NCBI GenBank assembly: GCA_016207645.1
Contig: JACQPH010000101.1
Location: forward strand, 18-64,017
DNA: 64,000 bases
Direction: 5' to 3'
DNA from: Elusimicrobiota bacterium
GTDB lineage: Bacteria; Elusimicrobiota; Elusimicrobia; Elusimicrobiales; UBA9959
In this document: in pieces, positions 1 to 59,254 of the stretch
Layout of the letters: each line of letters starts with the position of its first letter
Position numbering within the stretch: the stretch's first letter is position 1
Program-made: the position numbers and the translations under genes
The notes under the pieces: generated by a model
The model's input: the letters and a program-made list of their open reading frames with translations, nothing else
What the model was told of the DNA's origin: nothing
Databases searched by the model: none

Positions 1-40
1 CGGGGCAAAACCCCGGCCAACCCGAACCCTGAACAGTTAG
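1..40 (+). repeat. Right end of dispersed GTAAC...GTTAC palindromic element (copy 1, truncated by window edge)
   Basis: cggggcaaaaccccggccaacccgaaccctgaacagttag matches the right arm and terminal repeat of the copies at 42490-42662 and 54665-54829. Confidence 0.85.
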
Positions 41-125
41 ACCTTAATATTCTGAACGTAACTGTTAGTACACGCAACAAAAAATACATACTTTTGCGTA
101 TAACTGTGTTATATAATATTGGAGC

Positions 126-1511
126 ATGCGAGCGGAGCGCCCGGTCGCGCGCTTGCGGTTTTCCACGGCTAACAAGATGATACGAAAACTCGCGGCGGTC
201 CTGTTGTTTTCCTGGCCGGCCCTGCTGCCGCCGGCGGCGCGCTGCGCCTGGGAGAACATCCGTTACTCCGACGCCCCGCTGGCCGTGGTCTACGCCTCCA
301 CCGGCGCCTATGAAGTGGCCTATACCGCGGGGGAGGACTGCGCCAGCCCTTCCGAACTTGTCTCCTCCCCGGTTTCCGCCTGGTCGGGCTACCTTTCCCT
401 GGTGCCGGCCAATATGGTGAACCAGGGCGTCGTCGGCTTCGTCTCCACCTCCTCCGTGGCCCTGGACGGCGCGCTCTGGGGGAACCCGCCCGGCAACAGC
501 GTACAGCTCCTTTTCGGGGAGGACCTCGCGCCTTCGCTTTCCGCTCCGGCGGTGAACGTCACCAGGGTCTATGACAATACGGGCGGCGTGGTCAACTCCA
601 GCTGGGCGGTTACGTTCGGCTATTCCGGCCGGCAGCTGATCATCTCCCCCTCGGCCGACTGGCCCAAGGGCAGCGTCTTCTCGGTCTATATTTCCTCTTC
701 CATAGTGGATATAACCGGCTCTCCGGTCTCGGAGGCGGCCACGGTCTATTTCTCCGTGCTGATGGACTACCAGACGGACAATACCGCCGCCGCTTTCTCG
801 GACCGCCGGGTGCGCGTGGCCGTTCCGGCCAACGCTTATTCGCAGGATTTCTATCTCACCCTCTCCACCGACTCGGGCCGCCGGGAGGTGGCGGAGGCCA
901 ACGCCAGGCTGGCCGCCCTGCCGGGCGCGCCCGAGTTCCTCAATACCGTCGATGTGCGCCCTTACGATCCCGCCGGCAACCCGGTGCAGCCGGGCGCCCC
1001 CTGCGTGGTTACGCTGCCCTACCCGGACGACGACGGGAACGGGGTGATAGACGGCTCCGTCTCCAGGCTCAAGGCCTCGAACCTCGCGGTCTGGCACCTG
1101 GACGAGCAGCGGGGCCTCTGGGTGAAGCAGACCGGGGCCTCGCTGGACGCCTCTTCCAGGCTGGTGTCGCAGCCCGTCTCGCATTTCTCCAACTACGCGC
1201 TCCTGGCCCTGCCCGACGCCGACGTCACCCCGGTCTACGCCTTCCCGGTGCCTTTCAGGCCCAATGCCGGCAACGCGGCGAGGTACGGCAGCTGGAGCGA
1301 CCTGATCACTTTCACCAACCTGCCGGTACAGGGGAAGATACGGATCTACACCGTGACCGGGGCCCTTGTGCGCGAACTGGCCGTAACGCCGCCCTCGATG
1401 AAGTGGGACGTGAAGAACAAGGACGGGGAGCTGGTGGGCAGCGGCGTTTACCTGTGGGAAGTGACCTCCGGGAAGAACCGCAAGACCGGCAAGCTGGTGG
1501 TAATAAAGTAG
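126..1511 (+). CDS. Secreted Ig-like domain protein with C-terminal T9SS type A / FlgD-Ig-like sorting domain (start may be 177)
   Basis: Signal-peptide-like MIRKLAAVLLFSW; Big_5-like segment; C-terminus VYAFPVPFRP...IRIYTVTGALVREL...WDVKNKDGELVGSGVYLWEV...KTGKLVVIK. Confidence 0.75.
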   Translation: MRAERPVARLRFSTANKMIRKLAAVLLFSWPALLPPAARCAWENIRYSDAPLAVVYASTGAYEVAYTAGEDCASPSELVSSPVSAWSGYLSLVPANMVNQGVVGFVSTSSVALDGALWGNPPGNSVQLLFGEDLAPSLSAPAVNVTRVYDNTGGVVNSSWAVTFGYSGRQLIISPSADWPKGSVFSVYISSSIVDITGSPVSEAATVYFSVLMDYQTDNTAAAFSDRRVRVAVPANAYSQDFYLTLSTDSGRREVAEANARLAALPGAPEFLNTVDVRPYDPAGNPVQPGAPCVVTLPYPDDDGNGVIDGSVSRLKASNLAVWHLDEQRGLWVKQTGASLDASSRLVSQPVSHFSNYALLALPDADVTPVYAFPVPFRPNAGNAARYGSWSDLITFTNLPVQGKIRIYTVTGALVRELAVTPPSMKWDVKNKDGELVGSGVYLWEVTSGKNRKTGKLVVIK

Positions 1512-1523
1512 GGCCCGCTTATA

Positions 1524-2675
1524 ATGAAGAACAGGACCTTTCTGAAATTGATCGCGGCCGCCTGCTGCGCGCCGGCGCTCTTTCCCGCGGCCTCTTACGC
1601 CGGGGCCGGCAGGTCCGGCGGGGAATTCCTGCGCATCGTGCAGAGCCCCAGGGCCGTCGGCATGGGCGAGTCCGGCGCGGGAGCGCATGGCGACCTGCTG
1701 GGCGCCCTGGCCCTTAATCCCGCCGCCCTGGCCCGCTCCGGCTACAAGGAAACCGCTTTTACCTATAATTCCTGGCTCGAGGGGATAACCTCGCAGCAGG
1801 CCGCTTACGCCCACCCGCTGGCCGGCGGCAAAGGCGTGCTGGCCGCTTCGCTCAATATCCTGAGCGTCCCGTCCATAGACGGCTATAACAACGCCGGCGC
1901 GCCCGCCGGCGGCGTGGACGCCGGCGACCTGGCTTTCGGGGTCAGCTACGCGAGGCGGCTCGCCGGCCCCTGGGAGGACCTGCGCTCCGGGCTCTTCGCC
2001 GGCGGCTCGGTAAAATACGCGAGGGAGACGCTCGGGCCGGTCAAGGCCGGAGCGGCGCTCTTCGACGCCGGCGCCCTCTGGCTGAAAAGGCTGGGCAGCA
2101 GCATGCTGGGCCTGGGGCTTTCGGCGCAGTCGCTCGGCGGGGGTTTCAAGTTCGATTCCGTCGCCGAGAAGGCGCCCGCGGTGTACCGGGCCGGCGCTTC
2201 GTACATCATGGTGGTTTCCGGCGACCCGATAACGCTTTCCCTGGACTGGAAAAAACCCTGGGACTCCGGCGCCGCCGTCTGCGCCGGGGCCGAGTACCAG
2301 GCCTGGCGCGTTCTGTCGCTGCGGGCCGGCTATATCTCCGGGGAGGACCTGGGCGGCGGCCTGCGGCTGGGCGGCGGCGTGGCCATTAAACTGCTGCAGT
2401 TCGATTATTCGCTTTCTTCCTACGGCAAATTCGGCCCGGCCCACAGGTTCGGCCTGTCCTACAAATTCGACAAGCCGGTGGAAGTCACCAGATACCTGAC
2501 CTGGGACCAGGAGCAGGCCAGGCAGAAGACGGAGCGGGCCCGCCTCATGATCAGGGAAAGCCGCTATTACGACGCCGTCCTGGAGCTTAACGGGGCGCTC
2601 ATCCTGGACCCCGGCAACAAAGAGGCGCTGGAGCTCATGCGCAAGGCGCGGGGGCTGGTGGAGGTCTCTAAATAA
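1524..2675 (+). CDS. PorV/PorQ-family outer-membrane beta-barrel with C-terminal TPR-like extension
   Basis: FLRIVQSPRAVGMGE...NPAALA N-terminal motif of PorV/FadL-like barrels; LRAGY, FDYS, HRFGLSYKF strands; helical tail YYDAVLELNGALILDPGNKEA. Confidence 0.8.
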   Translation: MKNRTFLKLIAAACCAPALFPAASYAGAGRSGGEFLRIVQSPRAVGMGESGAGAHGDLLGALALNPAALARSGYKETAFTYNSWLEGITSQQAAYAHPLAGGKGVLAASLNILSVPSIDGYNNAGAPAGGVDAGDLAFGVSYARRLAGPWEDLRSGLFAGGSVKYARETLGPVKAGAALFDAGALWLKRLGSSMLGLGLSAQSLGGGFKFDSVAEKAPAVYRAGASYIMVVSGDPITLSLDWKKPWDSGAAVCAGAEYQAWRVLSLRAGYISGEDLGGGLRLGGGVAIKLLQFDYSLSSYGKFGPAHRFGLSYKFDKPVEVTRYLTWDQEQARQKTERARLMIRESRYYDAVLELNGALILDPGNKEALELMRKARGLVEVSK

Positions 2676-3523: not shown

Positions 3524-3527
3524 GCTT

Positions 3528-6500
3528 GTGAAGATAAAACACGGACTTGCGGCCGCGGCCGCTCTGGCTTTCCTGTTCCTGGCGGGCGTTCAGACCTTCG
3601 CCGCCTCGCCCGCCCAGGTCAGCTACCAGGGCACGCTCAGGAAGAACGGCGTGCTTTTCAGCGGCACCGCCGCCATGGAGTTCCGCATTACCAACGCCGA
3701 CGGCTCCGCGGTCTATTGGGCTTCCGGGTCCACGGACGTGGTGGTCTCCACCGGTCTTTTCCGCTACGCTCTCGGCTCCCCCAACGAGGTCGATTTCGGC
3801 AATATCGTCTGGAAAGAGATCACCCCTTACGTGCAGATGAACCTGGACGGCGGCTGGCTGCCGCGCGAGCCGCTGTATACCTCCGTCTACTCGCTGCATT
3901 CCAGGACGGCCGAGTCCTCCACCGGGACTTTCACCGTCAACGGCGGCGACCTGAAGCTCGTTTCCGCCACCGGCAGCAAGGGCATTTATTTCCAGGACGG
4001 CACCGCGCAGTACAGCGCCCCCGGCTGGGTCGTCACCGGCGCTTACACTTCTTTCGCGGGAGGGGCCGGCGTCGGTACCCTGACCCCGGCCACCAGGCTG
4101 GACGTGAAGGGGGCCGCCGCCGACCCTTATATACAGTTCTGGCGCGACGAGAACGGGGTGGTGAAGGCCACCATGACCGCGGCCGGCCTGCTTTACGCCG
4201 ACGGCTCGCAGCTGAGCAACCTGCCGGCGGGGGCCGACAATATGGGGAACCATACCGCTACCCAGGCCCTGAGCATGGCCGCTTTCCCCGTAAATAACGC
4301 CGGGGCGATAACCGCCAACGGCCAGGTCACCACTTATTCCAGCGCCACGGTAGTTTCGGCTTTCGGCCTCGGCGCGCCCAGGGTCAGGCTGGCGGGCGGG
4401 GTAGAGGTGTCCTCCTACTCGGCCGGCGGCGTCTATATTTCCTCTAACGTGACCCTCGCTTCCGGGGGCAGATATTTCGGCGACGGCTCCAGGCTGACGG
4501 GTGTTAACGACAGCCTTGGCAGCCATATAGCTACCCAGACCCTGAACATGGCGGGCTACGAGATCTCCGGCGTCTCTACGATCACCGTTGCCGCGGCCCT
4601 GCGCTTCGACGCTAACGTGGCTGTCTCTTCCGCCGCCGGACTTTACAGCGGGATATATATTTCCACCAACGTGAACATAGCTCCCGGCGCCCGATATTAC
4701 GGCGACGGCTCGGGCCTGACCGGGATAGTCGGCGTGGACAACCTGGGAAACCACACCATGACGCAGGGCCTGGCCACCGGCCCGAACTGGATCTCCTACG
4801 ACGGCTCCCCCTCCGGGCTTAACCTGGACGCCCTGGGGAATATAGGCGTGAACCAGGCGGCGGGTTCCGCCAGCCTGGACGTGCGCGGCGCCGGCGGCAG
4901 CTATATACAGATCTGGCGCAACTCCTCCGGGGTCATCAGGGCCTCGATGACGGTCGCGGGCGCGTTCTACGCCGACGGCTCGCAGCTGCGCAATGTGCCG
5001 GCCGGCGGCACCGCCAACCAGGCGCTGAACATGGCTTCTTTCGATATCGCCAATGTTTCCACGGTCACGCTGAGTTCCGTGACCAGTTCCGGGATAGGGG
5101 TGGTGTTCAGTACCAATGTGCTGCTGATGAACGGGCGGCTGGGCGTCAATACCTCTCTTCCGCAGGAAAGCCTGGACGTGAACGGCAATTTCAAGAGTTC
5201 CAGCCTGTCGGGTTTCGGGAATCAATGCGTTTACGCCGATGATAACGGCAGGCTTCTCCTGTCCGGAAGCGGACTGTGCGGCAGCGCTTCCGGTTTGGAT
5301 AATCTGGGCAACCGGATCATGCTCGGCAATCTTATCACCGGCAGCAACTGGATCTCCTTCGACGGCAGCGCCGGCGGCCTGTCGGTGAACGTCAGCAGCA
5401 ATGTCGGCATAGGCGTCCTCTCGGCCGCGACGCGGCTGGACGTGCAGGGGCGGAGCGGGGACAGCTACGTGCAGATCTGGCGCGATTCCGCCGGGGTGAT
5501 AAAGGCTTCTATGACGGCCGCCGGCCTGCTCTACGCCGACGCTTCGCAGATGGTCAACCTGCCTTCAGGCGGGGACAGCCTCGGCGATCATACTTCCACG
5601 CAGACCCTTGATATGTCCGGTTTCCAGATAGTGAACGCGGGCTCGGTCACGGTCACCGCGGCCGCCGGAGTGGGCGCCGCCAGGCTGAGTCTCAATACGA
5701 ACGTGGAGATCTCTTCCGAGACCGATCCAGCGCTGGGCGCGGGCTTGCGCGTTTCCTCTAACGTGTATATAGTCGGTTTCTCTTCCGCGGCCAAATATTA
5801 CGGCGACGGCTCCGGCCTGACCGGTGTTATCAGCTCGCCCGACGGCCTGGGCAACCATACGGCCACGCAGGACCTGGCCATGACCTCCTTCGATATCACC
5901 GGCGTCTCCACTATTACGGTCAGTTCCGTCACCGGCACCGGCATAGGCGTAGTGTTCAGCACCAATGTGCTGATCATGAGCGGGAACCTGGGCGTGAACA
6001 AGGCTCTGCCGCAGGCGAGCCTGGACGTGAACGGGAATATAATGAGCTCCAGCCTTTCCGGCGCCGGGGATCAGTGCGTATATGCCGATAATACCGGCCG
6101 CCTGCTCCTGTCCGGGGTAGGGACTTGCGGAAGCGCGGCGGGGCTGGATAACCTGGGCAACCGGATCATGCTCGGCAATCTTATCACCGGCAGCAACTGG
6201 ATCTCTTTCGACGGCAGCAACGGCGGCCTGTCGGTGAATATCAGCAGCAATGTGGGCATCGGCATCCTGTCGGCCGCCACGCGGCTGGACGTGCAGGCGG
6301 CCGCGGGGGACATTTACGCGCAGATCTGGCGCAACTCCGCGGGGGTCATCCAGGCCTCGATGTCGGCCACCGGGGAGCTGTATGCGGACGCTTCCAGGAT
6401 GCGCAACCTGCCTTCAGGGGCGGACGACCTGGGCAGCCACACGGCCACGCAGGACCTGGACCTGGCCTCCAGCGATATAATCGGCGTTTCCACCATCACG

Positions 6501-9500
6501 GCGGGCTACCTGACCAGCGCCGGCCCCGGCGTGATCTTCAGCACCAATCTGCTGGTCATGGACGGCAGCCTGGGCGTGAGCACCCTGGTGCCGCAGGAAA
6601 AACTGCATGTCACGGGCAAGATACGCGCTTCCAGCCTGTCCGGCTCCGGCAACAGGTGCGTCCAGGCCAACGATTCCGGCGTGCTGGGGCTTTCCGCCGA
6701 CGCCTGCGGCCTGGCAGGGGCGGGCGGGGACAACCTGGGCGACTATACCATGACCTTCAACCTGCTGACCAACGGCAACTGGCTCTCGGGAGACGGCGGG
6801 AACGAGGGTATACAGATAGACTCGCTCGGGAACGTTTCCATCGGGGACTCCGCCAATAATGCCCGCCTCGACGTGCGCGGCGGCGCGCTCACTAATATCC
6901 AGGTATGGCGCGACGTGGCGGGGGTGACGCGGGCTTCCATAAGCAGCGGCGGCGGCCTGGCCGCCAGCAGCGCTACCGTCAACGGCCAGCTCACCGTTAA
7001 TTCCAGCGCCACCGTGACCGCGGCCCAGGGTCTGGGCTCGCCCAAGCTGAAGCTCTCCTCGAACGTGGAGATCTCCTCCGAGACCGCCGCCTCCTACGGC
7101 GGCGGCGTGCGCGTTTCCTCCAACGTGTACATAGTGGGCTATTCCTCGGCCGCCAGGTATTACGGCGACGGCTCCGCGCTGACCGGCCTGACCGGGCTGA
7201 ACGCCTCCAATATCAGCGCGGGTACGCTTTCCGACGCCAGGCTTTCCGCCAACGTGCCCCTGCTCGACGCGGTCAATACTTTCTCCAGCAGCCTCACGGT
7301 GACCGGCGCCGGCGGCGCCAGGCTCGCCCGTATCGGTTTCAACGACGCGGTGGAGTTCTCTTCCGCCGCGGCCGGCAGCTACGGCGGCGTGCAGTTCTCC
7401 ACCCATGTCTTTCTGCCGGCCGGCGCGAAGTATTACGGCGACGGCTCGCAGCTGACCGGCGTGAGCGGTTCCGACGACCTGGGGAACCATACCGCCACCC
7501 AGGACCTGGACCTGAACACCTTCAACCTGGTGAACGTGGCCTCCCTGACCGCCAGGGGCGCCGTGACCGCCTATTCCAGCGTTACCGTGGCCGGCGACCT
7601 CGGCCTGGGCGCCGCTTTGCGGTTCGACAATAATGTGGAACTCTCCTCCTCCACCGGGCTGAACCGGGGGATCCAGATCTCCACCAACGTCTACATAGTC
7701 GGCATCGCTTCCGCCGCGAAGTATTACGGCGACGGCTCCGGCCTCTACGGCGTGACCGGCGACAATATCATCGATACCCTCGCGGCCACGCTGACAGCCG
7801 GCTCCGACGCCGGCGGTTCCAGTATAACCAACCTGGGCTCGCTGACGGCCGGCGCCGATATAACCGCCGGCGGCTCCGTGGCCGCCAGCGGGGATGTAAC
7901 GGCTGCCGGGCATGTCACGGCCGGCGGCCCTCTCACCACCTATTCCAGTGCCACCGTCGCGGGGGCGCTGGGCCTTGGCGCGGCCAGGCTCCGTTTCAGC
8001 GCCGGCGTTGAGATCTCCTCCCAGACTTCCGCCGCGCTGGGCGGCGGCGTCGGCGTCTCCTCGAACGTGTACATAGTAGGTTTCTCTTCCGCCGCCAAAT
8101 ATTACGGCGACGGCTCTTCTCTCACCGGGGTCTCCGACGATCTGGGGAACCATACGGCCACGGCCGACCTGAACATGGCCTCGAACGATATCCTCTCGGT
8201 CTCCACCATTACCGTCGGGTACCTTTTCAGCCAGGGCGCCGGCGTGGCTTTCACCACCAATGCTTTTATCCTTGGCGGCCGGCTCGGCATCAATACGTCT
8301 TTGCCGCAGGAAAGTCTGGACGTGAACGGCAACATCATGAGCGCCAGCCTGTCGGGCTTCGGAGACCGGTGCGTGTATGCCGATACTACAGGTAAGCTCC
8401 AATTGGCCGGAGATGTATGCGGAACCGGCGCCGGGACTGATAATATGGGCAACCACACGATGACCCAGAATCTTAAAACCGGCGGCAACCTGATAACTTA
8501 TGGCCCCGGAGTCGGCAGCGGCCTGTCTATCAATATAAGCAGCAATGTCGGCATAGGCCTTTCTAACGCCGCGACCAGGCTGGACGCGCAGACGGGGCTG
8601 GGGGACCCTTATATGCAGTTCTGGCGCGACTCGGGCGGCACCATTATAGCTTCCATGTCGGCCACCGGCAGCCTCATGTCCTCGCGGTTCGTGGGCGACG
8701 GCTCCGGCCTGAGCAAGCTGCCGCCCCTGCCGGAGAACCTGATCACCAACGGCTTCTGGCTGTCCAATGACGGAGTTAACGGCGGCATTTACGTGAACGC
8801 CTCCAACAATGTCGGCGTCGGTACTCCTTTCCCCGGCGCCAGCCTGGACGTTAAGGCTTCCGGCGCTTACGCGCAGCTCTGGCGCGATTCCGGGGACCTG
8901 GCCGTGGCCACGATGACCGCGGAGGGCCTGTTCAGCGTCTCCTCCAACGTGTATATAGCCGGCTTCTCCTCGGCTTCCGTGTATTACGGCGCCGGCTCGG
9001 CCCTTACCGGCCTGAACGCTTCCAATATCGGCGCGGGGACGCTGGCTGACGCGCGGCTTTCCGCCAATGTGCCCCTGCTGGACGCCGCCAATACCTTCTC
9101 CAGCAGCATCACGGTGACCGGGGTTGCCGGCGCCAGGCTGGCCCGGATCGGTTTCAACGACGCGGCGGAGCTCTCTTCCGCGGCGGCCGGCAACTACGGC
9201 GGCGTGCAGTTCTCCACCAACGTCTTCCTGCCGGCGGGTGCGAAGTATTACGGGGACGGTTCCGCGCTGACCGGCATAAGCGGCCCCGATGATCTGGGCA
9301 ACCATATCGCAACCGCCGACTTGAACATGAATAACTTTAACCTGCTCAATGTAGGCGCCATAGCCCCCGATCCGGCGTCCAGCGTGACCGTGGTAGGGGT
9401 GCTGCAGTCGTTCGGGAGCGGTTATACGCAGATCTGGCGCAATTCGATAGGCGTCGCGGTGGCCTCGATGACGGACGCCGGCGTGCTTTACGCCGACGGC

Positions 9501-10469
9501 TCCCAGCTCACCGGCGTGGCCGGCGGCGGCAGCCTGTCGGCGCTGCTGGCCTCCAGCCCCGACGCGGCGAACGGCTATATTATCAACCTCAGCAGCCTGG
9601 CCGCCGGCCGGTCCGTGGCTTACGCGCCGCTGGACGTGCAGGCGTCCGCCGCCGGTACCAACAGCCAGATCTGGCGCGACGAGGCGGGCGTCTATGTGGC
9701 GTCGATGTCGGCCGCCGGAGCGTTCTACGCCGGAAGCGCGGTTATGAACAGCGCGGAGCTGTATTCTTCCCTGGTGGTTAACAATGTGGAGATAAGCTCC
9801 CATATGTCGGTGGGCAATCAGGGCGGGGTAGCGCCTTCCGTCGTCGTTATGGCCTCAAGCGTTATAGAGGAGGCGGATATAGACAATGTCAATCCGAACG
9901 TCGGGGTGCTGGGCGCCGCTCTGCTGAACCCCACCGCCGTCAGAAGCGGAAGCGGCCCCGAGATGGTTATCGGCGGCAATTTCCGGGGAGGAATAGTTCC
10001 GGGGATGGGCGTCGACAAGGACTTCCCCACTCTCATGGGCTTGAGGACCGCCGCCTGGGCCAATACCTCGGGCCAGGTGACGAACGCCTACGGTATCTGG
10101 GTGCAGAACGAGCAGACCGCGGGGGTAGTAGTGAATAATTACGGCGTTTATGTGGCGACCCCTGTATTAAGCGGCGGGGCCATAACCAACAATTACGGTA
10201 TTTATATAAGCACCCAGTCGGGGTTAGGCGCTGCTACGGACTACAACATCTATTCCGCGGGCGCCGGCAGCGTTAATCGCTTCGAGGGCGCGGTCCGGGT
10301 GGACGGAGCGTTGAGGCTGGCGTCCAAAACAAAAGCGGAGATATTGCTGCTCGATCCCGTTGATGTGGGAGAGATGTATTACTGCTCGGATTGCACCCCG
10401 AAGACCATGGTCGTTTCCACCGGGACCGCGGTCGGCAATTTCGCTAATGGCGCCGGCGGAGCTTTCTAA
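3528..10469 (+). CDS. Giant (2313 aa) repetitive tail-fibre-like surface adhesin
   Basis: Signal peptide; N-domain SPAQVSYQGTL...GLFRYALG; many recurring modules DNLGNHTATQDL, YYGDGSGLTG, NVGIG..RLDV, QIWRxSAGVIxASM; C-terminal YYCSDC. Confidence 0.8.
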   Translation: MKIKHGLAAAAALAFLFLAGVQTFAASPAQVSYQGTLRKNGVLFSGTAAMEFRITNADGSAVYWASGSTDVVVSTGLFRYALGSPNEVDFGNIVWKEITPYVQMNLDGGWLPREPLYTSVYSLHSRTAESSTGTFTVNGGDLKLVSATGSKGIYFQDGTAQYSAPGWVVTGAYTSFAGGAGVGTLTPATRLDVKGAAADPYIQFWRDENGVVKATMTAAGLLYADGSQLSNLPAGADNMGNHTATQALSMAAFPVNNAGAITANGQVTTYSSATVVSAFGLGAPRVRLAGGVEVSSYSAGGVYISSNVTLASGGRYFGDGSRLTGVNDSLGSHIATQTLNMAGYEISGVSTITVAAALRFDANVAVSSAAGLYSGIYISTNVNIAPGARYYGDGSGLTGIVGVDNLGNHTMTQGLATGPNWISYDGSPSGLNLDALGNIGVNQAAGSASLDVRGAGGSYIQIWRNSSGVIRASMTVAGAFYADGSQLRNVPAGGTANQALNMASFDIANVSTVTLSSVTSSGIGVVFSTNVLLMNGRLGVNTSLPQESLDVNGNFKSSSLSGFGNQCVYADDNGRLLLSGSGLCGSASGLDNLGNRIMLGNLITGSNWISFDGSAGGLSVNVSSNVGIGVLSAATRLDVQGRSGDSYVQIWRDSAGVIKASMTAAGLLYADASQMVNLPSGGDSLGDHTSTQTLDMSGFQIVNAGSVTVTAAAGVGAARLSLNTNVEISSETDPALGAGLRVSSNVYIVGFSSAAKYYGDGSGLTGVISSPDGLGNHTATQDLAMTSFDITGVSTITVSSVTGTGIGVVFSTNVLIMSGNLGVNKALPQASLDVNGNIMSSSLSGAGDQCVYADNTGRLLLSGVGTCGSAAGLDNLGNRIMLGNLITGSNWISFDGSNGGLSVNISSNVGIGILSAATRLDVQAAAGDIYAQIWRNSAGVIQASMSATGELYADASRMRNLPSGADDLGSHTATQDLDLASSDIIGVSTITAGYLTSAGPGVIFSTNLLVMDGSLGVSTLVPQEKLHVTGKIRASSLSGSGNRCVQANDSGVLGLSADACGLAGAGGDNLGDYTMTFNLLTNGNWLSGDGGNEGIQIDSLGNVSIGDSANNARLDVRGGALTNIQVWRDVAGVTRASISSGGGLAASSATVNGQLTVNSSATVTAAQGLGSPKLKLSSNVEISSETAASYGGGVRVSSNVYIVGYSSAARYYGDGSALTGLTGLNASNISAGTLSDARLSANVPLLDAVNTFSSSLTVTGAGGARLARIGFNDAVEFSSAAAGSYGGVQFSTHVFLPAGAKYYGDGSQLTGVSGSDDLGNHTATQDLDLNTFNLVNVASLTARGAVTAYSSVTVAGDLGLGAALRFDNNVELSSSTGLNRGIQISTNVYIVGIASAAKYYGDGSGLYGVTGDNIIDTLAATLTAGSDAGGSSITNLGSLTAGADITAGGSVAASGDVTAAGHVTAGGPLTTYSSATVAGALGLGAARLRFSAGVEISSQTSAALGGGVGVSSNVYIVGFSSAAKYYGDGSSLTGVSDDLGNHTATADLNMASNDILSVSTITVGYLFSQGAGVAFTTNAFILGGRLGINTSLPQESLDVNGNIMSASLSGFGDRCVYADTTGKLQLAGDVCGTGAGTDNMGNHTMTQNLKTGGNLITYGPGVGSGLSINISSNVGIGLSNAATRLDAQTGLGDPYMQFWRDSGGTIIASMSATGSLMSSRFVGDGSGLSKLPPLPENLITNGFWLSNDGVNGGIYVNASNNVGVGTPFPGASLDVKASGAYAQLWRDSGDLAVATMTAEGLFSVSSNVYIAGFSSASVYYGAGSALTGLNASNIGAGTLADARLSANVPLLDAANTFSSSITVTGVAGARLARIGFNDAAELSSAAAGNYGGVQFSTNVFLPAGAKYYGDGSALTGISGPDDLGNHIATADLNMNNFNLLNVGAIAPDPASSVTVVGVLQSFGSGYTQIWRNSIGVAVASMTDAGVLYADGSQLTGVAGGGSLSALLASSPDAANGYIINLSSLAAGRSVAYAPLDVQASAAGTNSQIWRDEAGVYVASMSAAGAFYAGSAVMNSAELYSSLVVNNVEISSHMSVGNQGGVAPSVVVMASSVIEEADIDNVNPNVGVLGAALLNPTAVRSGSGPEMVIGGNFRGGIVPGMGVDKDFPTLMGLRTAAWANTSGQVTNAYGIWVQNEQTAGVVVNNYGVYVATPVLSGGAITNNYGIYISTQSGLGAATDYNIYSAGAGSVNRFEGAVRVDGALRLASKTKAEILLLDPVDVGEMYYCSDCTPKTMVVSTGTAVGNFANGAGGAF

Positions 10470-21696: not shown

Positions 21697-21858
21697 GTAA
21701 CTGCTCAGGTCGCTATAGGGAGTTCGGGTTGGCCGGGGTTTTGCCCCGCGAACCCCGGAAGTGGAAACCCTTGCGTCGGTTTCCCCCCGTAGCGGGGCCC
21801 CCCTTCCGCAAGGGGTTCGAGAAAAAAAACCCCCGCCAACCCTCCACTACCTGTACAC
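21697..21858 (-). repeat. Dispersed palindromic element, copy 2 (inverted; one terminal repeat eroded)
   Basis: Near reverse complement of 54665-54829; lies between the divergent sprA-like gene and lptF. Confidence 0.9.
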
Positions 21859-37147: not shown

Positions 37148-37220
37148 GTAACTACCCGGGTAGTGGAGGGTTGGACGGGGTTTTGTTTCGCGAACCCCAT
37201 ACAGCGATTTGAGTGGTTAT
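37148..37220 (+). repeat. Dispersed palindromic element, copy 3 (internally deleted)
   Basis: Left arm gtaactacccgggtagtggagggttgg..ggggttttgtttcgcgaacccc joined directly to a right-end-like segment atacagcgatttgagtggttat. Confidence 0.8.
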
Positions 37221-42489: not shown

Positions 42490-42662
42490 GTAACTGTTCA
42501 GGTGCTGCTGGAGGGGTGGCCGGGGTTTTGTTTCGCGAACCCCATGCGGAAGGGGGGGCCCCGCCGGGCGGGGGGAAACCGACGCAAGGGTTTCCAACTT
42601 CCGGGGTTCGCGGGGCAAAACCCCGGCCACCCCGGACCCCGGAGAGGGACCAGAATAGTTAC
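42490..42662 (+). repeat. Dispersed palindromic element, copy 4 (full length)
   Basis: gtaactgttcag...cagaatagttac with nested stems; between convergent genes. Confidence 0.9.
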
Positions 42663-43984
42663 TATTTCTTTAAAATCGCGGCGGCGGCTTCCAGGCCTTC
42701 CTTTACGCTCTCTTCCATGAAGGAATACTTCCAGGCCCCGTAGCGCCCTATGGAGAAGGCCTTCCTCGCCTTGAACCAGTCGAAGATCACCGGCAGGGCA
42801 GCGGCCCGTTCCCGGTTGTAGATGACATAGGCGCAGGGGATCTTCAGCCAGAGCTTCTCCACTATCTGTCCGGCGCTTTTTATAAGGCCGCAGGCCTTGA
42901 GCCCCTTTATAGCGGCCGCCTCCGCCGAGGCCAGGTCCAGGGGGGAACCCGGGGTCGCGATCTCGATATAGAAAGAGGCGCAGCCGCGCGGCGCCAGCGC
43001 TTTGGAAAAATTGGTGGCGATGCCGGTGCGGTAGAACAGGAACTCGGGCCCGGGGAAATAGCCCCAGTGCATGGGAGACTTTACGCCCTTCACGCCGAGG
43101 TTAAGCACGTAGACGGTATTGTGGCGGAGGCCGGCGGCGGCCCGCCTGACAGCGGCCGGCGCGTCCGCCGCGCTTTCGACGAAGTACTTGAGCGGGGAAG
43201 TGTTTATCAGCCGCTTAAAATGCACCGGGCCGAAATGCTTCACGTTCGCCACGCCCTTTTTCAGGTCGAGGCTTTCCACTTCCAGTCCGAGGCGCAGGCC
43301 TTTAAGGTCCCGCGCCAGCGCCGCGGGCAGGGCGCCGATGCCGCCGCGCTTCGGGTAATTGAACACGGTATTATAGCCCAGTATTTCCGGCTTCCCGCCG
43401 TAAGCGCCCTTCAGTACCGTCTCCGGGCTGGGCATGGGCACGAAGGGGGCGCACCATTCCGTGGTCAGCCGCTCCAGCGGGTACTGCCAGAGCTTGGCGT
43501 TGTAGGGCAGCATGAAATGCTTCGAGATCCCGTCGCCGAAGACGCGCCGGGTCCAGCGGGTGAAAACCTCCGGCTTGTTCCCCCGCGGCGGGGCTTTCCC
43601 GGCGGCCTGCGCCTGCCTGGCCGCGTACGCGGCCAGGAAACCGCTCACGCATTCGGACTTCACGCGGGGCGGCAGGGCGCGGAGGTTGGCCTGGAAAGGG
43701 TAGGGCGTCCAGGCCCCGTGCGCGAAGACGCGGGCGTCGCGCTTTACGCGGGCGCAGTTCCCGCCGAGGGCATCCAGTATGAACCTGGAGGTTTCCGGCC
43801 AGCGCAGGTGGAGCAGATGGCCGGAATAGTCGAAAAGGAAGGGGCCTTTTTTCAGCGTGGCCGCCAGCCCGCCCGGCCGGTTCTCGCGTTCGGCTACCAG
43901 GTAATCTTTTTTCCCTTCCAGAGCCTTCGCGGCGGAAAGCCCGGCCAGGCCGCCGCCGATGATGAGGACGTCGGTGCTGAGCAT
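42662..43984 (-). CDS. FAD-dependent oxidoreductase (HemY / UDP-galactopyranose mutase-like)
   Basis: IIGGGLAGL, FDYSGH, PYNAKLW, YP..GG, GRYGAWKY; glycan-cluster context. Confidence 0.75.
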   Translation of the reverse strand: MLSTDVLIIGGGLAGLSAAKALEGKKDYLVAERENRPGGLAATLKKGPFLFDYSGHLLHLRWPETSRFILDALGGNCARVKRDARVFAHGAWTPYPFQANLRALPPRVKSECVSGFLAAYAARQAQAAGKAPPRGNKPEVFTRWTRRVFGDGISKHFMLPYNAKLWQYPLERLTTEWCAPFVPMPSPETVLKGAYGGKPEILGYNTVFNYPKRGGIGALPAALARDLKGLRLGLEVESLDLKKGVANVKHFGPVHFKRLINTSPLKYFVESAADAPAAVRRAAAGLRHNTVYVLNLGVKGVKSPMHWGYFPGPEFLFYRTGIATNFSKALAPRGCASFYIEIATPGSPLDLASAEAAAIKGLKACGLIKSAGQIVEKLWLKIPCAYVIYNRERAAALPVIFDWFKARKAFSIGRYGAWKYSFMEESVKEGLEAAAAILKK

Positions 43985-43985
43985 G

Positions 43986-51998: not shown

Positions 51999-53794
51999 GG
52001 TTTAAACAGTACCAGTTTATTGCCGTGATAGTCGAAAAGTTTTTCGCGGCAGAGGGCGCCGGCGGCCTCCAGTTCCTTCGCTATGGAGGGGAGGTCCGTC
52101 CTCAGCCCGGCGAAGGGGCTGTACGGCAGCAGCAGGAAGTCGAAGGCGCCGTCCCGGAAAGCCCGCGCCGCCTTCTCCGCCGAGAAACCCGGCGGCAGGT
52201 CCCTGTCCCAGGCCAGCTTGCCGGCCATGCCGTGTTTGGCCAGGTAGTAGTGGCTCGGCTCCACTTCCATCGGCGCGTAGATCTTCAGGCCGGGCCTGTT
52301 CAGGGACTTGAAATATTCCACGGCCTCCCAGTAGGGGAAGCTGTTCCCGTGATAATTGAACACGGTCCTGCGCTGGTAGGGGTTCTTCGCGAAGACGGAC
52401 TGGAAAACGAACAGGGCCAGCAGGCCGGCGGCCAGCGGCTTCGCCAGGCGCCCGGGCAGGGCCGCGGCCAGGTCCGAGACCGCCAGCAGCAGCATGAGCA
52501 CCAGGCCGATGTAGAAAGGCTGCGCGTGGCGCACGAAGCCGACGGCCAGGGTGGCGCTTATCATGAGATAATAAGCGGCGGAAAAGTACAGCAGCAGGGC
52601 CGTTTCCAGGTTCCTGCGGCGGTACAGGACATAGGCGGCGGAGGCCGCCAGCAGCGCGGTTATGGGCGCGCCGCAGGTCATATAGATCACTTTCAGATTT
52701 AAGGTCATTATAGCCGGGTCGTACAGGTATTCGTAGACCAGGGCGGTGTTCCGTATGCCGTAGGCCGCGCTTATCAGAATGAAAGGCAGCCCGACGAGAA
52801 GCGGCATGGCCAGGGTTTTCAGGCCGTATAGCCAGGCTTCGCGCCGCTGCGGATAGACCAACCATAAAGCCGCCAGGGCCGGGATGAAGGAGAGCACGAG
52901 GCCGAGCAGCAGCTGTTTATAGAAGAAACCGGCCGCGGTCCAGAAGGCGCATTTGAGGAACTCCTCCCGCTCCCCGGTAGCCGCGGCTTTCATGAAATGG
53001 AAAATGGAGGCCGCGAAGAACAGCACCGTGCCGGCCTCCAGCTCGGCGCTGGTGCCCAGGTTGAAGAAGGTGGGGAAAAAGGCCGCCAGCAGGTAGGCCA
53101 GGCGCGGCGGCGGGCCGGCCTTCATCAGTTTCAGCAGGCGCAGCAGGTAGACGGCGGCCAGTACCAGCAGAAAGAACTGCGCCGCGCGCGGCGCCGCCTC
53201 GTTAACTCCCAGCAGCAGGTAGGCCGGCAGGTAGAGGAACTTCGCCAGCGGGGGATAGCGCAGGACGGTCTCGAACCGGCCTATGGCTTCGGCCAGGCCG
53301 AAGCGCAGCGAGGCGAAGAAGAACAGATTCCCGGCGGCGGCGAGGCCCAGCACGGCGGCGCCCCGGCCCGGCAGTTCCATGCCTTTCCGGTAAAGCCCGA
53401 CCGCGGCCGCGGCCGTTATGGCGGCCAGCGGCAGGAAGAGCGCCGGCAGCAGGCGTATGTCCAGACCCAGGGCTGTGGTAGCGCGGCCCAGCAGCCAGGC
53501 CGGCGGACCGGCATGGGACTGGTCGTCGGCGCCGGTGGGAAGGGGGGTAAGCCATAAGAAAAGAGAGGCGGCGGCGGCCAGCAGGACGGCCGGCCAGAGC
53601 TCTTTCAGTTCGGGGAAAGAGGCTTCCGGGGAAACTTCGCCGAGAGGGCTGTAGAGCGCGGCCGCCGAAAGGAGGATAAAAAAGTTGAGGAGCGCCCACT
53701 GCGCGGGCCAGGGCAGCGGCAGATGCCAGACCGGGTAGAAAATATACGAGAAGGCCGTCAGCAGGAAGAGCGCCCAGTTCAGCCGGACCTTCAT
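51986..53794 (-). CDS. Polytopic membrane protein, possible GT-C glycosyltransferase
   Basis: Many TM helices; DD in first loop; RYPPL; FVRH. Confidence 0.55.
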   Translation of the reverse strand: MKVRLNWALFLLTAFSYIFYPVWHLPLPWPAQWALLNFFILLSAAALYSPLGEVSPEASFPELKELWPAVLLAAAASLFLWLTPLPTGADDQSHAGPPAWLLGRATTALGLDIRLLPALFLPLAAITAAAAVGLYRKGMELPGRGAAVLGLAAAGNLFFFASLRFGLAEAIGRFETVLRYPPLAKFLYLPAYLLLGVNEAAPRAAQFFLLVLAAVYLLRLLKLMKAGPPPRLAYLLAAFFPTFFNLGTSAELEAGTVLFFAASIFHFMKAAATGEREEFLKCAFWTAAGFFYKQLLLGLVLSFIPALAALWLVYPQRREAWLYGLKTLAMPLLVGLPFILISAAYGIRNTALVYEYLYDPAIMTLNLKVIYMTCGAPITALLAASAAYVLYRRRNLETALLLYFSAAYYLMISATLAVGFVRHAQPFYIGLVLMLLLAVSDLAAALPGRLAKPLAAGLLALFVFQSVFAKNPYQRRTVFNYHGNSFPYWEAVEYFKSLNRPGLKIYAPMEVEPSHYYLAKHGMAGKLAWDRDLPPGFSAEKAARAFRDGAFDFLLLPYSPFAGLRTDLPSIAKELEAAGALCREKLFDYHGNKLVLFKPCAE

Positions 53795-53859
53795 TTCGTC
53801 GCCCTTATAAGCGCGCGAGCGGCAGCGAGCTTTCCCCGTAAGTTTAGCCGGACCTTCAT
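53791..53859 (-). CDS. 22-aa mini-ORF MKVRLNLRGKLAAARALIRATK (relay unit 2)
   Basis: ATG overlaps the stop of unit 1; TGA overlaps the ATG of 51986..53794. Confidence 0.4.
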   Translation of the reverse strand: MKVRLNLRGKLAAARALIRATK

Positions 53860-53924
53860 TTCGTCGCCCTTATAAGCGCGCGAGCGGCAGCGAGCTTTCC
53901 CCGTAAGTTTAGCCGGACCTTCAT
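53856..53924 (-). CDS. 22-aa mini-ORF MKVRLNLRGKLAAARALIRATK (relay unit 1)
   Basis: ATG overlaps the TGA of the methyltransferase; own TGA overlaps the next ATG. Confidence 0.4.
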   Translation of the reverse strand: MKVRLNLRGKLAAARALIRATK

Positions 53925-54643
53925 TTCGTCGCCCTTATAAGCAGGGAGCCGGCTATTTCCCGCAGGAGCGGAAGGCGCTCCAGGAGGGCGCCGAACTTAT
54001 CGGCGGCCGGGGCCAGCGCCCCGGGCACCCAGGGGTGCAGGAAATCGAAAGGCTCCGTCTTCACCCCGGAAAAGCCGGCGTCCAGCAGCGTCCCTTTTAT
54101 CTGCCAGCGGAAAAAAGCGGTCTCGTCGGGCGAGTCGCCCATGAAGGCCTTGAGCGGCGGGATATTCTTCTGGAGCATGATCTGCGGGTTCAGCATGTTG
54201 GGTTCGGTGAAAACGAAGTTCCCGCCGGGCTTGAGCACGCGCAGCATCTCCGGGAGGGCTTTGGGCAGGTTCAGGTGGTGCAGCACGGAGCTGCCGTAGA
54301 CGCAGTCGAAGGAATTCTCCGGGAAGTCCAGTTCCTCCACGTTCATGACCCGATACTTCACGTTGGGCGCGGGGTTCTGCGCGCGGGCCCTTTCCACCAG
54401 TTCCGGGGAGAGTTCTACGGCGGTGATGTCCGCGCCGCTGCGGGCTATCAGGGCCGTGAAGATCCCGGTGCCGCAGCCTATCTCCAGGGCCTTTTTGTGA
54501 GGCCCGAGGGCTCCGGCCGACCTATACATCCTCGCCCTGCGCTCGGCGCGGAGCCGCCCGGCCGGGCCGGACCAGCCCCAGTAGAACTCGGCGTTCCCGG
54601 AAATTTTCCGCCCGTGGGCCAGTTCGTTCTCTATTCTTTCCAT
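53921..54643 (-). CDS. Class I SAM-dependent methyltransferase
   Basis: LEIGCGTG, FDCVYGSSVLHH, RVLKPGG, EPN. Confidence 0.88.
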   Translation of the reverse strand: MERIENELAHGRKISGNAEFYWGWSGPAGRLRAERRARMYRSAGALGPHKKALEIGCGTGIFTALIARSGADITAVELSPELVERARAQNPAPNVKYRVMNVEELDFPENSFDCVYGSSVLHHLNLPKALPEMLRVLKPGGNFVFTEPNMLNPQIMLQKNIPPLKAFMGDSPDETAFFRWQIKGTLLDAGFSGVKTEPFDFLHPWVPGALAPAADKFGALLERLPLLREIAGSLLIRATK

Positions 54644-54660: not shown

Positions 54661-54833
54661 ATCCGTAACTGCTCAGGTAGTGGAGGGTTGGCAGGGGTTT
54701 TGTTTCGCGAACCCCTTGCGGAAGGGGGGCCCCGCTTCGGGGGGAAACCGACGCAAGGGTTTCCCTCTTCCGGGGTTCGCGGGGCAAAACCCCAGCCAGC
54801 CCGAACCCCGTAGCGACCTGAGCAGTTACGGAT
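54661..54833 (+). repeat. Dispersed palindromic element, copy 5 (most intact)
   Basis: Perfect 18-bp terminal inverted repeat atccgtaactgctcaggt / acctgagcagttacggat enclosing nested stems. Confidence 0.92.
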
Positions 54834-54853
54834 ATTTACAGGTTCTTTACCCG

Positions 54854-55990: not shown

Positions 55991-56077
55991 GATCTTCCTC
56001 CTGAGCGTTCGTCTCATAATTATTATATTAAAGTAAGCCGTGAAAGGCCACCCGCCCGTGTAACTCTTTCTCAACTT

Positions 56078-56086
56078 TGTTATAAT
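56078..56086 (+). promoter_or_regulatory. Extended -10 promoter (TGnTATAAT) for the GT2-rmlD-wecA operon
   Basis: tgttataat in the AT-rich divergent intergenic region. Confidence 0.5.
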
Positions 56087-56142
56087 CTAAACCGGCATGG
56101 CCGTCCGATACGCATAGCGCCCGATACGGCACCGACATAGTC

Positions 56143-57729: not shown

Positions 57730-58759
57730 ACTGCTGGAGAATTTCAGGCTTTACTTCCTCGCTTTCCTGCTGCCGCTGTCGCTGTCGCTGTGCCTGACCC
57801 CGCTGCTGCGGCTCCTGGCCCTGAAGTTCGGCCATCTCGACAAGCCCACCGAGATCAAGACCCATAAACATCCCACTCCGCTGCTGGGCGGGGCGGCGGT
57901 TTTCGCCTCCTTCGCCGCCGCGCTGCTCTTCATGCGGTTTTACACTTCCTTTCCCACCGGCACGCTGCGCGACCTGCGCGTGCTGCTGCTGGGCGGGGCC
58001 GTTATGTTCGCGCTGGGTTTCGTGGACGACATGCGCAAGCCGCACGGCCTCGGCGTGAAGACCAAGTTCGCCGTGCAGTTCGCGGTGGCCGTCTGCACGG
58101 CCTACTACGGCATACGGATACACTTCCTGCACCCGGATTACCTGAGCTTCGCGCTGAGCGTGTTCTGGATAGTGGGGGTTTCCAACGCTTTCAACATAAT
58201 CGACATCATGGACGGGCTTTCGGCGGGGCAGGTGGTGCTGGCGGCCTTCGGTTTCCTGCTTATCGCCTTCCCGTCGGAATCCATCTACGTGAATTTCGCC
58301 TCGGCGGCCCTGGCGGGCGCGGCGCTGGGTTTCCTGCCCTATAACATGTCCCACAGGTACAAGATCTTCATGGGCGATTCCGGCAGTCTTTCCTGCGGTT
58401 TCGTGCTGGCGGTGATAGCCATGGGCACCAAGTATACGGAAGTGAACCCGCTGGGCGTCTACGCACCGCTCATCATCCTGGCGGTGCCTATTTACGATAC
58501 GCTTTTCGTTTCGGTGATGCGCATGAGGCGGGGCCATTCCCCTTTCCTGGGCAGCCAGGACCATTTCGCGCTGAGGCTGGAAAAGATAGGCTTTTCGCGG
58601 CGCAAAGTGGTGCGCCTCACTTCGCTGGTCACGCTCGGCCTGGCGGTCTTCGCCTGGCTTATCACCCAGGTCCCCCTGGGCTGGGGCGTCCTGATAGCCT
58701 GCATCCTGGCCGCGGAATTCCTCCTCGTCGGCGCAGCCATCGCCAAGATCAAGATATAA
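57722..58759 (+). CDS. wecA: Undecaprenyl-phosphate GlcNAc-1-P transferase (WecA/MraY family)
   Basis: GFVDD, NAFNIIDIMDGL, FMGDSGS, H motif. Confidence 0.85.
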   Translation: MNELLENFRLYFLAFLLPLSLSLCLTPLLRLLALKFGHLDKPTEIKTHKHPTPLLGGAAVFASFAAALLFMRFYTSFPTGTLRDLRVLLLGGAVMFALGFVDDMRKPHGLGVKTKFAVQFAVAVCTAYYGIRIHFLHPDYLSFALSVFWIVGVSNAFNIIDIMDGLSAGQVVLAAFGFLLIAFPSESIYVNFASAALAGAALGFLPYNMSHRYKIFMGDSGSLSCGFVLAVIAMGTKYTEVNPLGVYAPLIILAVPIYDTLFVSVMRMRRGHSPFLGSQDHFALRLEKIGFSRRKVVRLTSLVTLGLAVFAWLITQVPLGWGVLIACILAAEFLLVGAAIAKIKI

Positions 58760-58786
58760 TAACCGAAGCCGCCGCCGCGCGCCGTC

Positions 58787-59179
58787 TTACTCCGCCGTGA
58801 CTTCGAATTCCGGGGGGTTGTCCATGGTGCGCTTTACCAGGCACTGGCCGGCGGCTTTGATCAAGGCGTCTTTGTACTTGGGGGGGAAGTCTTTGGGGAG
58901 GGTTATCTTTAAGACGGCCCTGGTCAGGAGGCGGGTGGCGGGGTCCTGTTCGAAAGAGGCGGTTATTTTAAGGCCCTCGGCGCCCAGGCCGCGGGACTGG
59001 AGGAAGCCCAGGGCGAAGATGCCGGCGCAGGTGCCCAGCGAGGCCAGGAAAAGGTCGAACGGGGTGGGGGCCGAGCCTTCTCCGCCGCCGCTCGCATGCT
59101 GGTCGGTCCTGATCTCGAAGCCGTGCCATTGCGCGTTCACTTTTTTTCCGCCCGGGAAAGTTATTTCCATTTCGCTCAT
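58787..59179 (-). CDS. OsmC-like protein
   Basis: TDQ..GG...PTPFDLFLASLGTC...QCLV. Confidence 0.85.
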   Translation of the reverse strand: MSEMEITFPGGKKVNAQWHGFEIRTDQHASGGGEGSAPTPFDLFLASLGTCAGIFALGFLQSRGLGAEGLKITASFEQDPATRLLTRAVLKITLPKDFPPKYKDALIKAAGQCLVKRTMDNPPEFEVTAE

Positions 59180-59215
59180 GATTTCTTCCCTGAAAAACCT
59201 GATTCTTACCGCTTG

Positions 59216-59254
59216 GTAACTACCCGAACCCCTTATAGCGACCTGGGTAGTTAC
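59216..59254 (+). repeat. Dispersed palindromic element, copy 6 (minimal 39-bp form)
   Basis: gtaactaccc-gaaccccttatagcgacct-gggtagttac: both termini plus the right-end motif. Confidence 0.8.

Follow-up and report, generated by a model that had tools for sequence, protein, structure and literature searches.

Copies of the repeat in the window and in the genome

The window analyzed here is a 64,000-nucleotide (nt) stretch of an Elusimicrobiota genome (assembly GCA_016207645.1, contig JACQPH010000101.1; G000:C74:18-64017 in our handles, G000 being this genome). The assembly comprises 2.80 Mb in 167 contigs, with 62% G+C. The subject of this report is an intergenic repeat of about 165 nt with inverted termini beginning in GTAAC, a miniature inverted-repeat transposable element (MITE) with a structured interior, of which the window holds six copies. 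A reading of the window from its letters alone (the sequence-only reading) had placed these copies between open reading frames (ORFs), and all six were confirmed at those positions and in that setting. A repeat finder links them with one another (direct families D14, D15, D18 and D19; inverted pairs I1-I6, I8 and I10). The copies, and the duplications that flank two of them, are as follows; P1 and the core are parts of the folded interior described below, and scores are those of a covariance model (CM), R1, of that interior.

1..40, + strand: 3′ end of a copy truncated by the start of the contig, which begins inside the element (D19)
21697..21858, − strand: copy with a degenerated 5′ terminus and an intact 3′ terminus, the latter reading GTAACTGCTCAGG on the plus strand at 21697-21709 (repeat family I1)
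37148..37220, + strand: 73-nt internal-deletion derivative without the core, its left terminus and P1 5′ arm fused to a degenerate right end (D14)
42490..42662, + strand: full 173-nt copy (copy 4), 124.1 bits
42482-42489 / 42663-42670, + strand: 8-bp duplication of copy 4, TATTCCTT / TATTTCTT, with 1 mismatch in 8
54665..54829, + strand: full 165-nt copy, the reference (copy 5), 126.4 bits
59216..59254, + strand: 39-nt mini-MITE consisting of the two termini only (repeat family I8)
59208-59215 / 59255-59262, + strand: 8-bp duplication of the mini-MITE, ACCGCTTG / ACCGCTTA

Comparison of copy 5 with the whole G000 assembly by blastn gave 213 matches that merged into 161 loci on 100 of the 167 contigs, in keeping with the expectation of the sequence-only reading that the genome would hold many copies. 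Contig ends are reached by 76 of the 161 loci, and of the 334 contig ends 104 have a locus no more than 200 nt away. The repeat is thus a main cause of the fragmentation of the assembly, and the figure of 161 loci is a lower bound.

Inverted termini and target site duplications

Alignment of 36 internal G000 copies revealed common 13-bp inverted termini, GTAACTRCYCAGG ... CCTGRGYAGTTAC. The search for paired termini yielded 26 pairings, 24 of which had full flanks (one locus is counted twice, through an alternative right end). In 12 of these 24, the 8-bp flanks differed at no more than 1 position, and in 7 they agreed perfectly, against about 0.6 of 24 expected from randomly permuted pairings. 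At the same tolerance, flank lengths of 5 to 7 and 9 to 11 bp gave 0 and a length of 4 gave 4. An exact 8-bp target site duplication accompanies the GTAAC-terminus element in G000, and the statement of the sequence-only reading that no clear duplication was present is hereby corrected. Mini-elements that retain only the termini carry duplications as well; at copy 5 there is none, the 8-bp flanks differing at 5 of 8 positions. The elements measure 39 to 230 nt, are non-coding and occupy 161 loci, which is the size and copy number of a MITE. The ~165-nt repeat in G000 is a non-autonomous DNA transposon of this type, with 13-bp inverted termini and 8-bp duplications; the earlier suggestion of a MITE-like mobile element was correct.

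The same termini in G000 also enclose other interiors, namely a second subfamily of the core whose P1 differs, derivatives reduced by deletion to ~60 nt and 33 nt, and an unrelated G/C-rich hairpin repeat. Exact matches to the terminus pattern numbered 432 in genome G088, 65 in G000, 35 in G085, 6 in G080 and at most 2 in each of the other 39 genomes of the genus, and the reversed control gave 0 everywhere. When the flanks of copies 4 and 5 were compared with five relatives by blastn, broken synteny or a different spacer meant that no clean empty site emerged; G081 looks filled at the copy-4 site, but its contig begins within the element. The load in G088, a relative with a genome of 2.6 Mb, is extreme, the 432 termini bounding elements of ~97 to 185 nt.

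A three-way junction inside the repeat

In the interior of the element, a long, variable stem (P1) and two hairpins (P2, P3) form a three-way junction, which includes a purine-rich strand that does not vary, GCGGA-N2-GGGGG. Its parts in copy 5 are as follows.

54665..54677, + strand: left terminal inverted repeat, GTAACTGCTCAGG, identical over its first 12 nt to the ISDge4 terminus quoted in PMC12898284
54685..54715, + strand: P1 5′ arm, pairing with 54772-54802 (two-sided changes at 20/25 P1 pairs)
54716..54729, + strand: J1/2, the conserved unpaired junction strand, TTGCGGAAGGGGGG, with GCGGA and a G-run in every genus seen
54730..54742, + strand: P2 hairpin, CCCCG-CTT-CGGGG, with an expandable loop (4/7 pairs covary at the aspS locus)
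54743..54764, + strand: P3 hairpin, GGAAACC-GACGCAAG-GGTTTCC, with a C-G-closed GCAA loop (GCAA in this genus, GGGA in others)
54772..54802, + strand: P1 3′ arm, partner of the 5′ arm by covariation in the alignment
54817..54829, + strand: right terminal inverted repeat, CCTGAGCAGTTAC, from the terminus alignment and counts

In general form, the module runs from a 5′ CGGAGGG through the P1 5′ arm, the unpaired strand, P2, P3 and a short return strand to the P1 3′ arm, and many copies carry a conserved 3′ tail, CCGACUNNNCAUCUCGCGG. The P1 arms are complementary, and their sequences are wholly different between copies and species. The unpaired strand has the consensus (U/A)(U/A)GCGGA(A/U)(A/G)GGGGG, and the conserved junction is asymmetric rather than palindromic. 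P2 has a CCCC/GGGG base and a variable, expandable top that at times holds inserts of 60 to 100 nt, while P3 takes the form GGAAACC-loop-GGUUUCC. In this genus the P3 loop is GCAA closed by C-G (GACGCAAG is present in 21 of 53 sequences), and three other genera have GGGA (ACGGGAG, likewise in 21 of 53); both are of GNRA type. A 2x2 site in P1 reads CG/CG in 19 of 39 sequences and is otherwise purine-purine (AG/AG in 8, AA/GG in 4). P2 and P3 accept extra hairpins, and the helices tolerate large inserts.

As RNA, copy 5 folds at −114.9 kcal/mol (z = −10.1, 200 shuffles), and the opposite strand folds at −98.6 kcal/mol (z = −7.7). The nested fold described in the sequence-only reading is real, as are the compensatory differences between copies and the U-G pairs confined to one strand that it had pointed out. 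Its suggestion of a pseudoknot between CUUGCG and CGCAAG fared less well. The complementarity (UUGCG:CGCAA) exists and is invariant within the genus; in other genera J1/2 reads UAGCG and the loop CGGGA, so that 2 of the 5 pairs are lost uncompensated, and the H-type pseudoknot between J1/2 and the P3 loop is not supported. A variant in G016 and G075 (GUUGGGG with GCGCAAC) can be read either way. In Rfam 15, which the earlier reading had named as a check, no family reached its gathering threshold in the window; searching by E-value brought up generic models of microRNA hairpins alone, at ≤31.6 bits against thresholds of ≥72.

Covariation on one strand

In an alignment of 39 module sequences, 95.8% of the cells assigned to helices form standard pairs, compared with 83.0% (standard deviation 0.6) when partners are shuffled, and none of 500 shuffles reached the observed value. 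When the partners are slid by 1 to 3 columns, 38 to 54% are paired. Both sides change at 20/25 P1 pairs and 2/5 P2 pairs. P3 served as the search pattern for this set, and its invariance there is therefore uninformative; the aspS locus described below supplies a two-sided change in P3. Wobble pairs in P1 are asymmetric, with 53 G-U against 10 A-C, or 34 against 10 once the subfamily private to G000 is left out. This excess of G-U over A-C indicates that one strand is selected to fold, and the CM discriminates between strands by ~100 bits. All three helices are held by compensatory changes on one strand, which agrees with the earlier proposal that pairing is selected in a single strand.

Distribution and age of the module

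The interior is found well beyond the MITE. Of 24 other genomes from the genus, 19 gave blastn matches to positions ~18 to 138 of copy 5, though not to its termini, and 16 genomes from two other families of the order gave 0. The exact 20-nt P3 pattern occurs in at least 66 stretches of a species-representative collection; the matches listed comprise 63 from records named Elusimicrobia, -ales, -aceae or -ota, 2 from an unclassified "bacterium" metagenome-assembled genome (MAG) and 1 from Robbsia andropogonis, in which the surrounding sequence is unrelated. CM R1, built from the 39 sequences, detected the module in 54 of 80 genomes of the family: in 41/42 of genus g1, 1/3 of g10, 3/3 of g12, 3/3 of g16 and 5/7 of g17, with 0 matches in the other eight genera. 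Counts per genome are limited to 40 scored candidates. In an even sample of the phylum, the model matched 6 of 151 genomes, including single genomes of three other families (f4, f6 and f18), and none of 45 genomes of f2 or 44 of f13.

Most copies of the module lack GTAAC termini, and some have different ones. The hairpin that contains the core in G103 ends in GAGATCACTTAAAAA (exact matches: 7 forward, 7 reverse; control 0). G170 has the ends CTCGACCTCACCC, and one subfamily has the closing helix GCCGGKGATTTT. Since the core occurs within different termini in different lineages, it is the apex that is conserved and the ends that are interchangeable, the reverse of an ordinary MITE. The interior is a foldback module, with a P1 of free sequence, a three-way junction, P2 and P3, that is older and wider in distribution than the MITE, as it is found in the majority of the genomes of the genus and also in further genera and families of Elusimicrobiota.

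The hisS-aspS spacer

The module can be followed at one orthologous position. Among 31 genomes examined, it lies directly upstream of aspS, on the aspS strand, in at least 14. Ten of these modules are full copies, one is partial at a contig end, two are cut by contig starts and one contains nested inserts. Comparison of the 10 full copies reveals two-sided changes at 24 of 42 pairs (19 in P1, 4 in P2 and 1 in P3); 95.5% of pairs are standard, compared with 83.4% after shuffling and 36 to 54% after sliding.

The other 17 loci are of several kinds. Six (L152, L154, L157, L158, L167 and L168) hold a "type II" element in the same spacer. This element shares the 5′ CGGAGGGG, P1 and the 3′ tail with the module and has a different inner core (..GGCUUGCGUAGCGCC..GCGCGGCCACGGUGUGGCCGA..), for which Rfam gave no match; there are 5 matches to it in G000 (C56, C151, C164 and others). 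Three loci hold remnants, one of them only GCGGAGGGTG next to CTATCCTGCGG; three, including that of G000, have no spacer between hisS and aspS; and one (L159, in G079) has a different long palindrome, GCGGTCCGGCCTCCTTGCC ... GGCAAGGAGGCCGGACCGC, where other species have the module. At the remaining four, the gene start was mislocated by the script, and the CM found no module there.

The transposon vehicle

The termini of the MITE resemble those of a known group of insertion sequences (ISs). According to PMC12898284, ISDge4 of Deinococcus geothermalis belongs to the ISBst12 group of the IS66 family and has the termini GTGACTACTCAGCA / GTAACTGCTCAGCA and an 8-bp repeat, and according to PMC11946415 IS66 termini begin with GTAAGCG and the family generates 8-bp repeats. 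The first 12 of 12 nt of the MITE terminus are identical to the second ISDge4 terminus (GTAACTGCTCAG), the comparison being with the motif printed in PMC12898284 rather than with a sequence record. The A/G variation at position 7 among MITE ends is the same difference that separates the two ISDge4 ends. Because the termini match the ISBst12 group, the vehicle is not new. Judging from these termini, the MITE was most likely mobilized in trans by an ISBst12-group (IS66-family) DDE transposase that lies outside the assembly. The interior is unlike trimmed IS ends, because it occurs elsewhere without these termini. A literature search on ISBst12 together with MITEs found no description, and one on Elusimicrobia MITEs, covarying RNA motifs and structured noncoding RNA found none of the element. 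Of the novelty suggested in the sequence-only reading, the part that concerns the structured interior, which has no match in Rfam or the literature searched, stands, and the part that concerns the mobile element itself does not.

Gene context and possible role of the module

Many copies stop 10 to 50 nt short of a start codon on the same strand. In the genus, copies between co-directional genes are sense in 41 cases and antisense in 21 (p = 0.015; de-duplicated, with four genomes added), the ratio in a first, smaller sample having been 25:8. This sense bias is one of several RNA-like traits, along with the GNRA-type loop, the 2x2 site that is either Watson-Crick or purine-purine and the helices that tolerate inserts. 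An RNA role is, on our reading, the most likely one for the module. The full proposal, to which we give about even chances, is that the module works as a folded RNA in transcribed spacers and has been captured repeatedly by the ends of transposons or inserted into their loops. It would act whenever the intergenic region is transcribed, which is the weakest step of the proposal, possibly by influencing the stability or processing of transcripts, or by binding a protein, in 5′ leaders and operon spacers. Transposon termini would have captured the module on repeated occasions, or the module would have inserted into their hairpin loops, and either event would have spread it; nesting into hairpin loops is common among G000 repeats. 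A bolder version, in which the three-way junction is a new functional RNA class specific to Elusimicrobiota (a protein-binding scaffold or a self-cleaving or processing ribozyme) gained independently by at least three vehicles (GTAACTGCTCAGG, GAGATCACTTAAAAA and CTCGACCTCACCC), is put forward tentatively, as we doubt it more than we credit it.

Several observations weigh against this account of vehicle and cargo. With regard to the vehicle, the domains PF03050, PF01609 and PF07282 (IS66, IS4/5 and TnpB) gave 0 matches in G000. Terminus pairs 260 to 8,000 nt apart in G000 comprised only two short or chance cases and no IS-sized pair, and a scan for an ORF between two termini returned 32 candidates, all with right ends containing 3 mismatches, the best of which (on C83) has no Pfam family. 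PF03050 matches were present in just 2 of 43 genomes of the genus (G088 and G081), a count to be read with the caveat that detection of ISBst12-group enzymes by this profile is unconfirmed, and the IS66 element of these two genomes ends in GTAAATATTCAGTAAACCCG, which matches the MITE terminus at 9 of 13 positions. The G000 assembly is 81% complete and breaks at repeats, and the absence of an autonomous partner is for that reason not shown; the partner would be unassembled or lost. With regard to the cargo, gene conversion between copies could mimic compensation in place at the aspS spacer, and because G-T wobble is also possible in single-stranded DNA the wobble asymmetry cannot separate RNA from single-stranded DNA. 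Orientation counts come from a rough gene caller based on G+C at third codon positions. In G000 they are 14 sense, 14 antisense, 8 divergent and 7 convergent, 74 of 117 cores lying too close to contig ends to be classed; in other genera they are 4 sense and 8 antisense. One third of the co-directional copies in the genus are antisense to their neighbors, and antisense copies are as intact as sense copies (means of 135 and 137 bits; n = 13 and 17). There is also no common theme among the genes downstream of the 30 copies whose neighbors were scanned.

The orientation data are what would be expected if the fold served the spread of the element itself, either as single-stranded DNA (a hairpin that snaps back at the replication fork, or a site that a host factor or transposase would use) or as an RNA intermediate in copying, with only the copies that fold multiplying. 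Such a role would explain why orientation matters so little, that is, why sense and antisense copies are equally intact and orientation in G000 is random. It would also fit the recently expanded subfamilies private to each genome, the other small repeats nested in hairpin loops, the same core within different inverted termini in different lineages and the fact that G-T wobble is open to DNA. However, cut-and-paste or copy-paste transposition by a DDE enzyme requires termini and not an apical junction, and no fitting HUH/Y1 partner was found: the Y1 genes are not flanked by the element, and the Y1 query had no match in six element-bearing genomes, G086 (at least 40 CM hits), G003 (30), G083, G074, G021 and G078. 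G000 gave no match to TnpB and has no strand bias by GC skew (44 against 42 copies), and neighboring copies lie on the same strand in 21 cases and on opposite strands in 13 (p = 0.23). At least 14 of 31 genomes also have a copy in one and the same orthologous spacer, which resembles retention rather than turnover. We regard selection for self-spread as the strongest competitor to an RNA role, with a modest minority share of the probability. Decay speaks against another reading, in which the copies would be independent small RNA genes or self-cleaving ribozymes, every one starting by itself, and would make up a new multi-copy RNA class: copies are decayed or lost at the aspS spacer in several species, no promoter-like sequence is conserved upstream of copies in the alignments, and no terminator follows them. 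Invariant unpaired junction bases, variable stems, a GNRA-type loop and many copies are nevertheless the usual signature of a ribozyme or protein-binding RNA, intactness is independent of the orientation of the neighbors, and no Rfam family matches. On this balance, free-standing genes are unlikely.

The conserved fold might also be no more than a neutral palindrome whose arms are kept complementary by hairpin-templated repair or by gene conversion between copies, with a core conserved by recent descent. Many copies within one genome are indeed young (~90% identical), and type I and type II cores swap in the same frame at one locus, which shows conversion or replacement. Yet genera, families and a second class retain the core even where change has saturated the stems, homogenization of DNA would not prefer G-T over A-C, for which the ratio is 34:10, and the conserved junction lacks the symmetry of a palindrome. 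We consider neutrality about as improbable as free-standing RNA genes. Least probable of all, to the point of being hardly tenable, is a cis-regulatory leader (a riboswitch, a T-box-like element or a protein-dependent attenuator) for the downstream gene. In its favor are the position of many copies 10 to 50 nt before a same-strand start codon and a first sample in which 30 of 41 copies had a same-strand downstream gene, four of the 30 preceding aspS and one metG. The same-strand bias shrank to 48 of 74 when more copies were included, one third of the copies are antisense and G000 has no bias. The 30 downstream proteins scanned are products of unrelated housekeeping genes, including aminoacyl-tRNA synthetases and peptidases (aspS, metG, purM, purN, purS, ETF, AcrB, fumarase, nadC, tmk, glmU, M20 peptidases, H+-PPase and others), with 5 belonging to no family, and the module is for that reason not a riboswitch-like regulator. 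This gene list and the orientation counts (41 sense and 21 antisense) largely refute a riboswitch or leader RNA.

An ordinary MITE from an IS group that can be identified thus serves as vehicle, and its cargo is a structured module, restricted to the phylum and not described before, whose covariation is exceptional. As a rule, MITEs are defined by their conserved ends, and what lies between is expendable; in this element it is the interior that is conserved and covaries across the phylum, and the ends are interchangeable. If the module acts as RNA, it would be a candidate for a new structured RNA family with unusually rich covariation, a natural example of a functional RNA carried by several transposon systems and possibly a layer of post-transcriptional control with global reach in an uncultured phylum about which little is known. 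Should it prove to be a new functional RNA class, a structured RNA spread as MITE cargo would rewire the leaders of many housekeeping genes. The repeat also accounts for the fragmentation of the MAG, and the termini and the CM could be used for flagging and scaffolding Elusimicrobia assemblies.

Other repeats and Y1 genes

Several other repeats were observed in G000, some of them nested in copies of the element. A G/C-rich hairpin repeat, CCCCCCTTGTGGGGGAAGGTTAGGATGGGGGG, has 20 matches, mostly free-standing; some are wrapped by the MITE termini. Examples are the following.

C83:33642, C84, C155, C157: G/C-rich hairpin repeat with GTAAC termini
C5, C30, C96: G/C-rich hairpin repeat without them

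A mini-element of ~48 nt, GAAGCTATGCTAGTGCCGTATCAAAGGGCTATGCCCCTCAGACGGCC, is nested just after P3 in 13 of 15 matches (e.g., C60:22218 and C125:5085) and stands alone in 2 (C37:14114 and C101:6430); a variant lies in the P1 3′ arm of two copies, and the mini-element is also present in relatives (L058 and L166). A short repeat, AAAAGGTGCCAGCCTCCTTTTT, often in inverted pairs, has 52 matches (≤3 mismatches; e.g., C9:7274, C66:12295 and C75:12020) and forms the long P2 insert in some copies of the element. A near copy of it directly follows the stop codon of a 252-amino-acid (aa) Y1_Tnp ORF on C117 (18966-19301). This repeat and the C117 Y1_Tnp gene are a candidate REP/RAYT pair, and AAAAGGTGCCAGCCTCCTTTTT is likelier to be the REP of G000 than is the element studied here. 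Three paralogous proteins of ~320 aa with an N-terminal Y1_Tnp domain are encoded at C15:11172-12128, C141:16044-17021 and C65:26119-27078, the gene on C15 being bracketed by GGGGACGTTGC/GCAACGTCCCC and by a ~200-nt duplication of a host gene. The window itself contains a 2,313-aa ORF (3528-10469, + strand) with many diverged internal repeats at periods of ~560 to 850 nt (families D1-D12, D16, D17 and D20), and three tandem 65-nt units between two minus-strand genes (53776-53970; 98% and 66% identity to the first; D13).

Comparison with known systems

Two kinds of element were considered and rejected as the source of the repeat. Integron attC sites do not fit copies that lie on 100 contigs between housekeeping genes, in both orientations and with 8-bp duplications; no search was aimed at integrases. 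Remnants of IS200/IS605 palindrome-associated elements (PATEs) or omega RNAs do not fit the 0 matches to PF07282 in G000 or the presence of inverted termini and a duplication. The closest vehicle is the ISBst12 group (ISDge4), with which the element shares the 12-nt terminus, the A/G variant at position 7, the 8-bp duplication and, as MITEs of this group would, a short, non-coding, multi-copy form; it differs in that no transposase or IS-sized element with these termini was found in G000 or the relatives searched.

REP and REPIN sequences mobilized by RAYTs (Y1/HUH) are intergenic hairpin repeats with tens to hundreds of copies per genome, a long life within a lineage and a strand-specific structure. 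The Elusimicrobiota element is likewise a multi-copy intergenic hairpin repeat, long-lived within its lineage and with strand-specific structure, but it has inverted termini and an 8-bp duplication, and the Y1 genes neither are flanked by it nor co-occur with it. None of the four Y1_Tnp ORFs in G000 is flanked by the element, and Y1 relatives occur in 62 of 80 genomes of the family, including genera without it. The REP/RAYT-type origin raised in the sequence-only reading was rejected on these grounds. In its covariation and conserved junction, the module is like the curated structured RNAs of Rfam, yet it matches no family there.

In general appearance, the element resembles ERIC/IRU, Correia (CREE), BOX and RUP sequences. 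These are imperfect palindromes of 100 to 200 nt that lie in transcribed intergenic DNA in either orientation, often near gene ends; they are modular, with optional inserts, and are thought to form RNA hairpins that affect mRNA stability or processing. Their conserved part is the termini or the arms. In the Elusimicrobiota element, by contrast, conservation is highest in the apical three-way junction, which is asymmetric and has unpaired bases that do not vary, and this junction is kept across the phylum while the stems and termini change.

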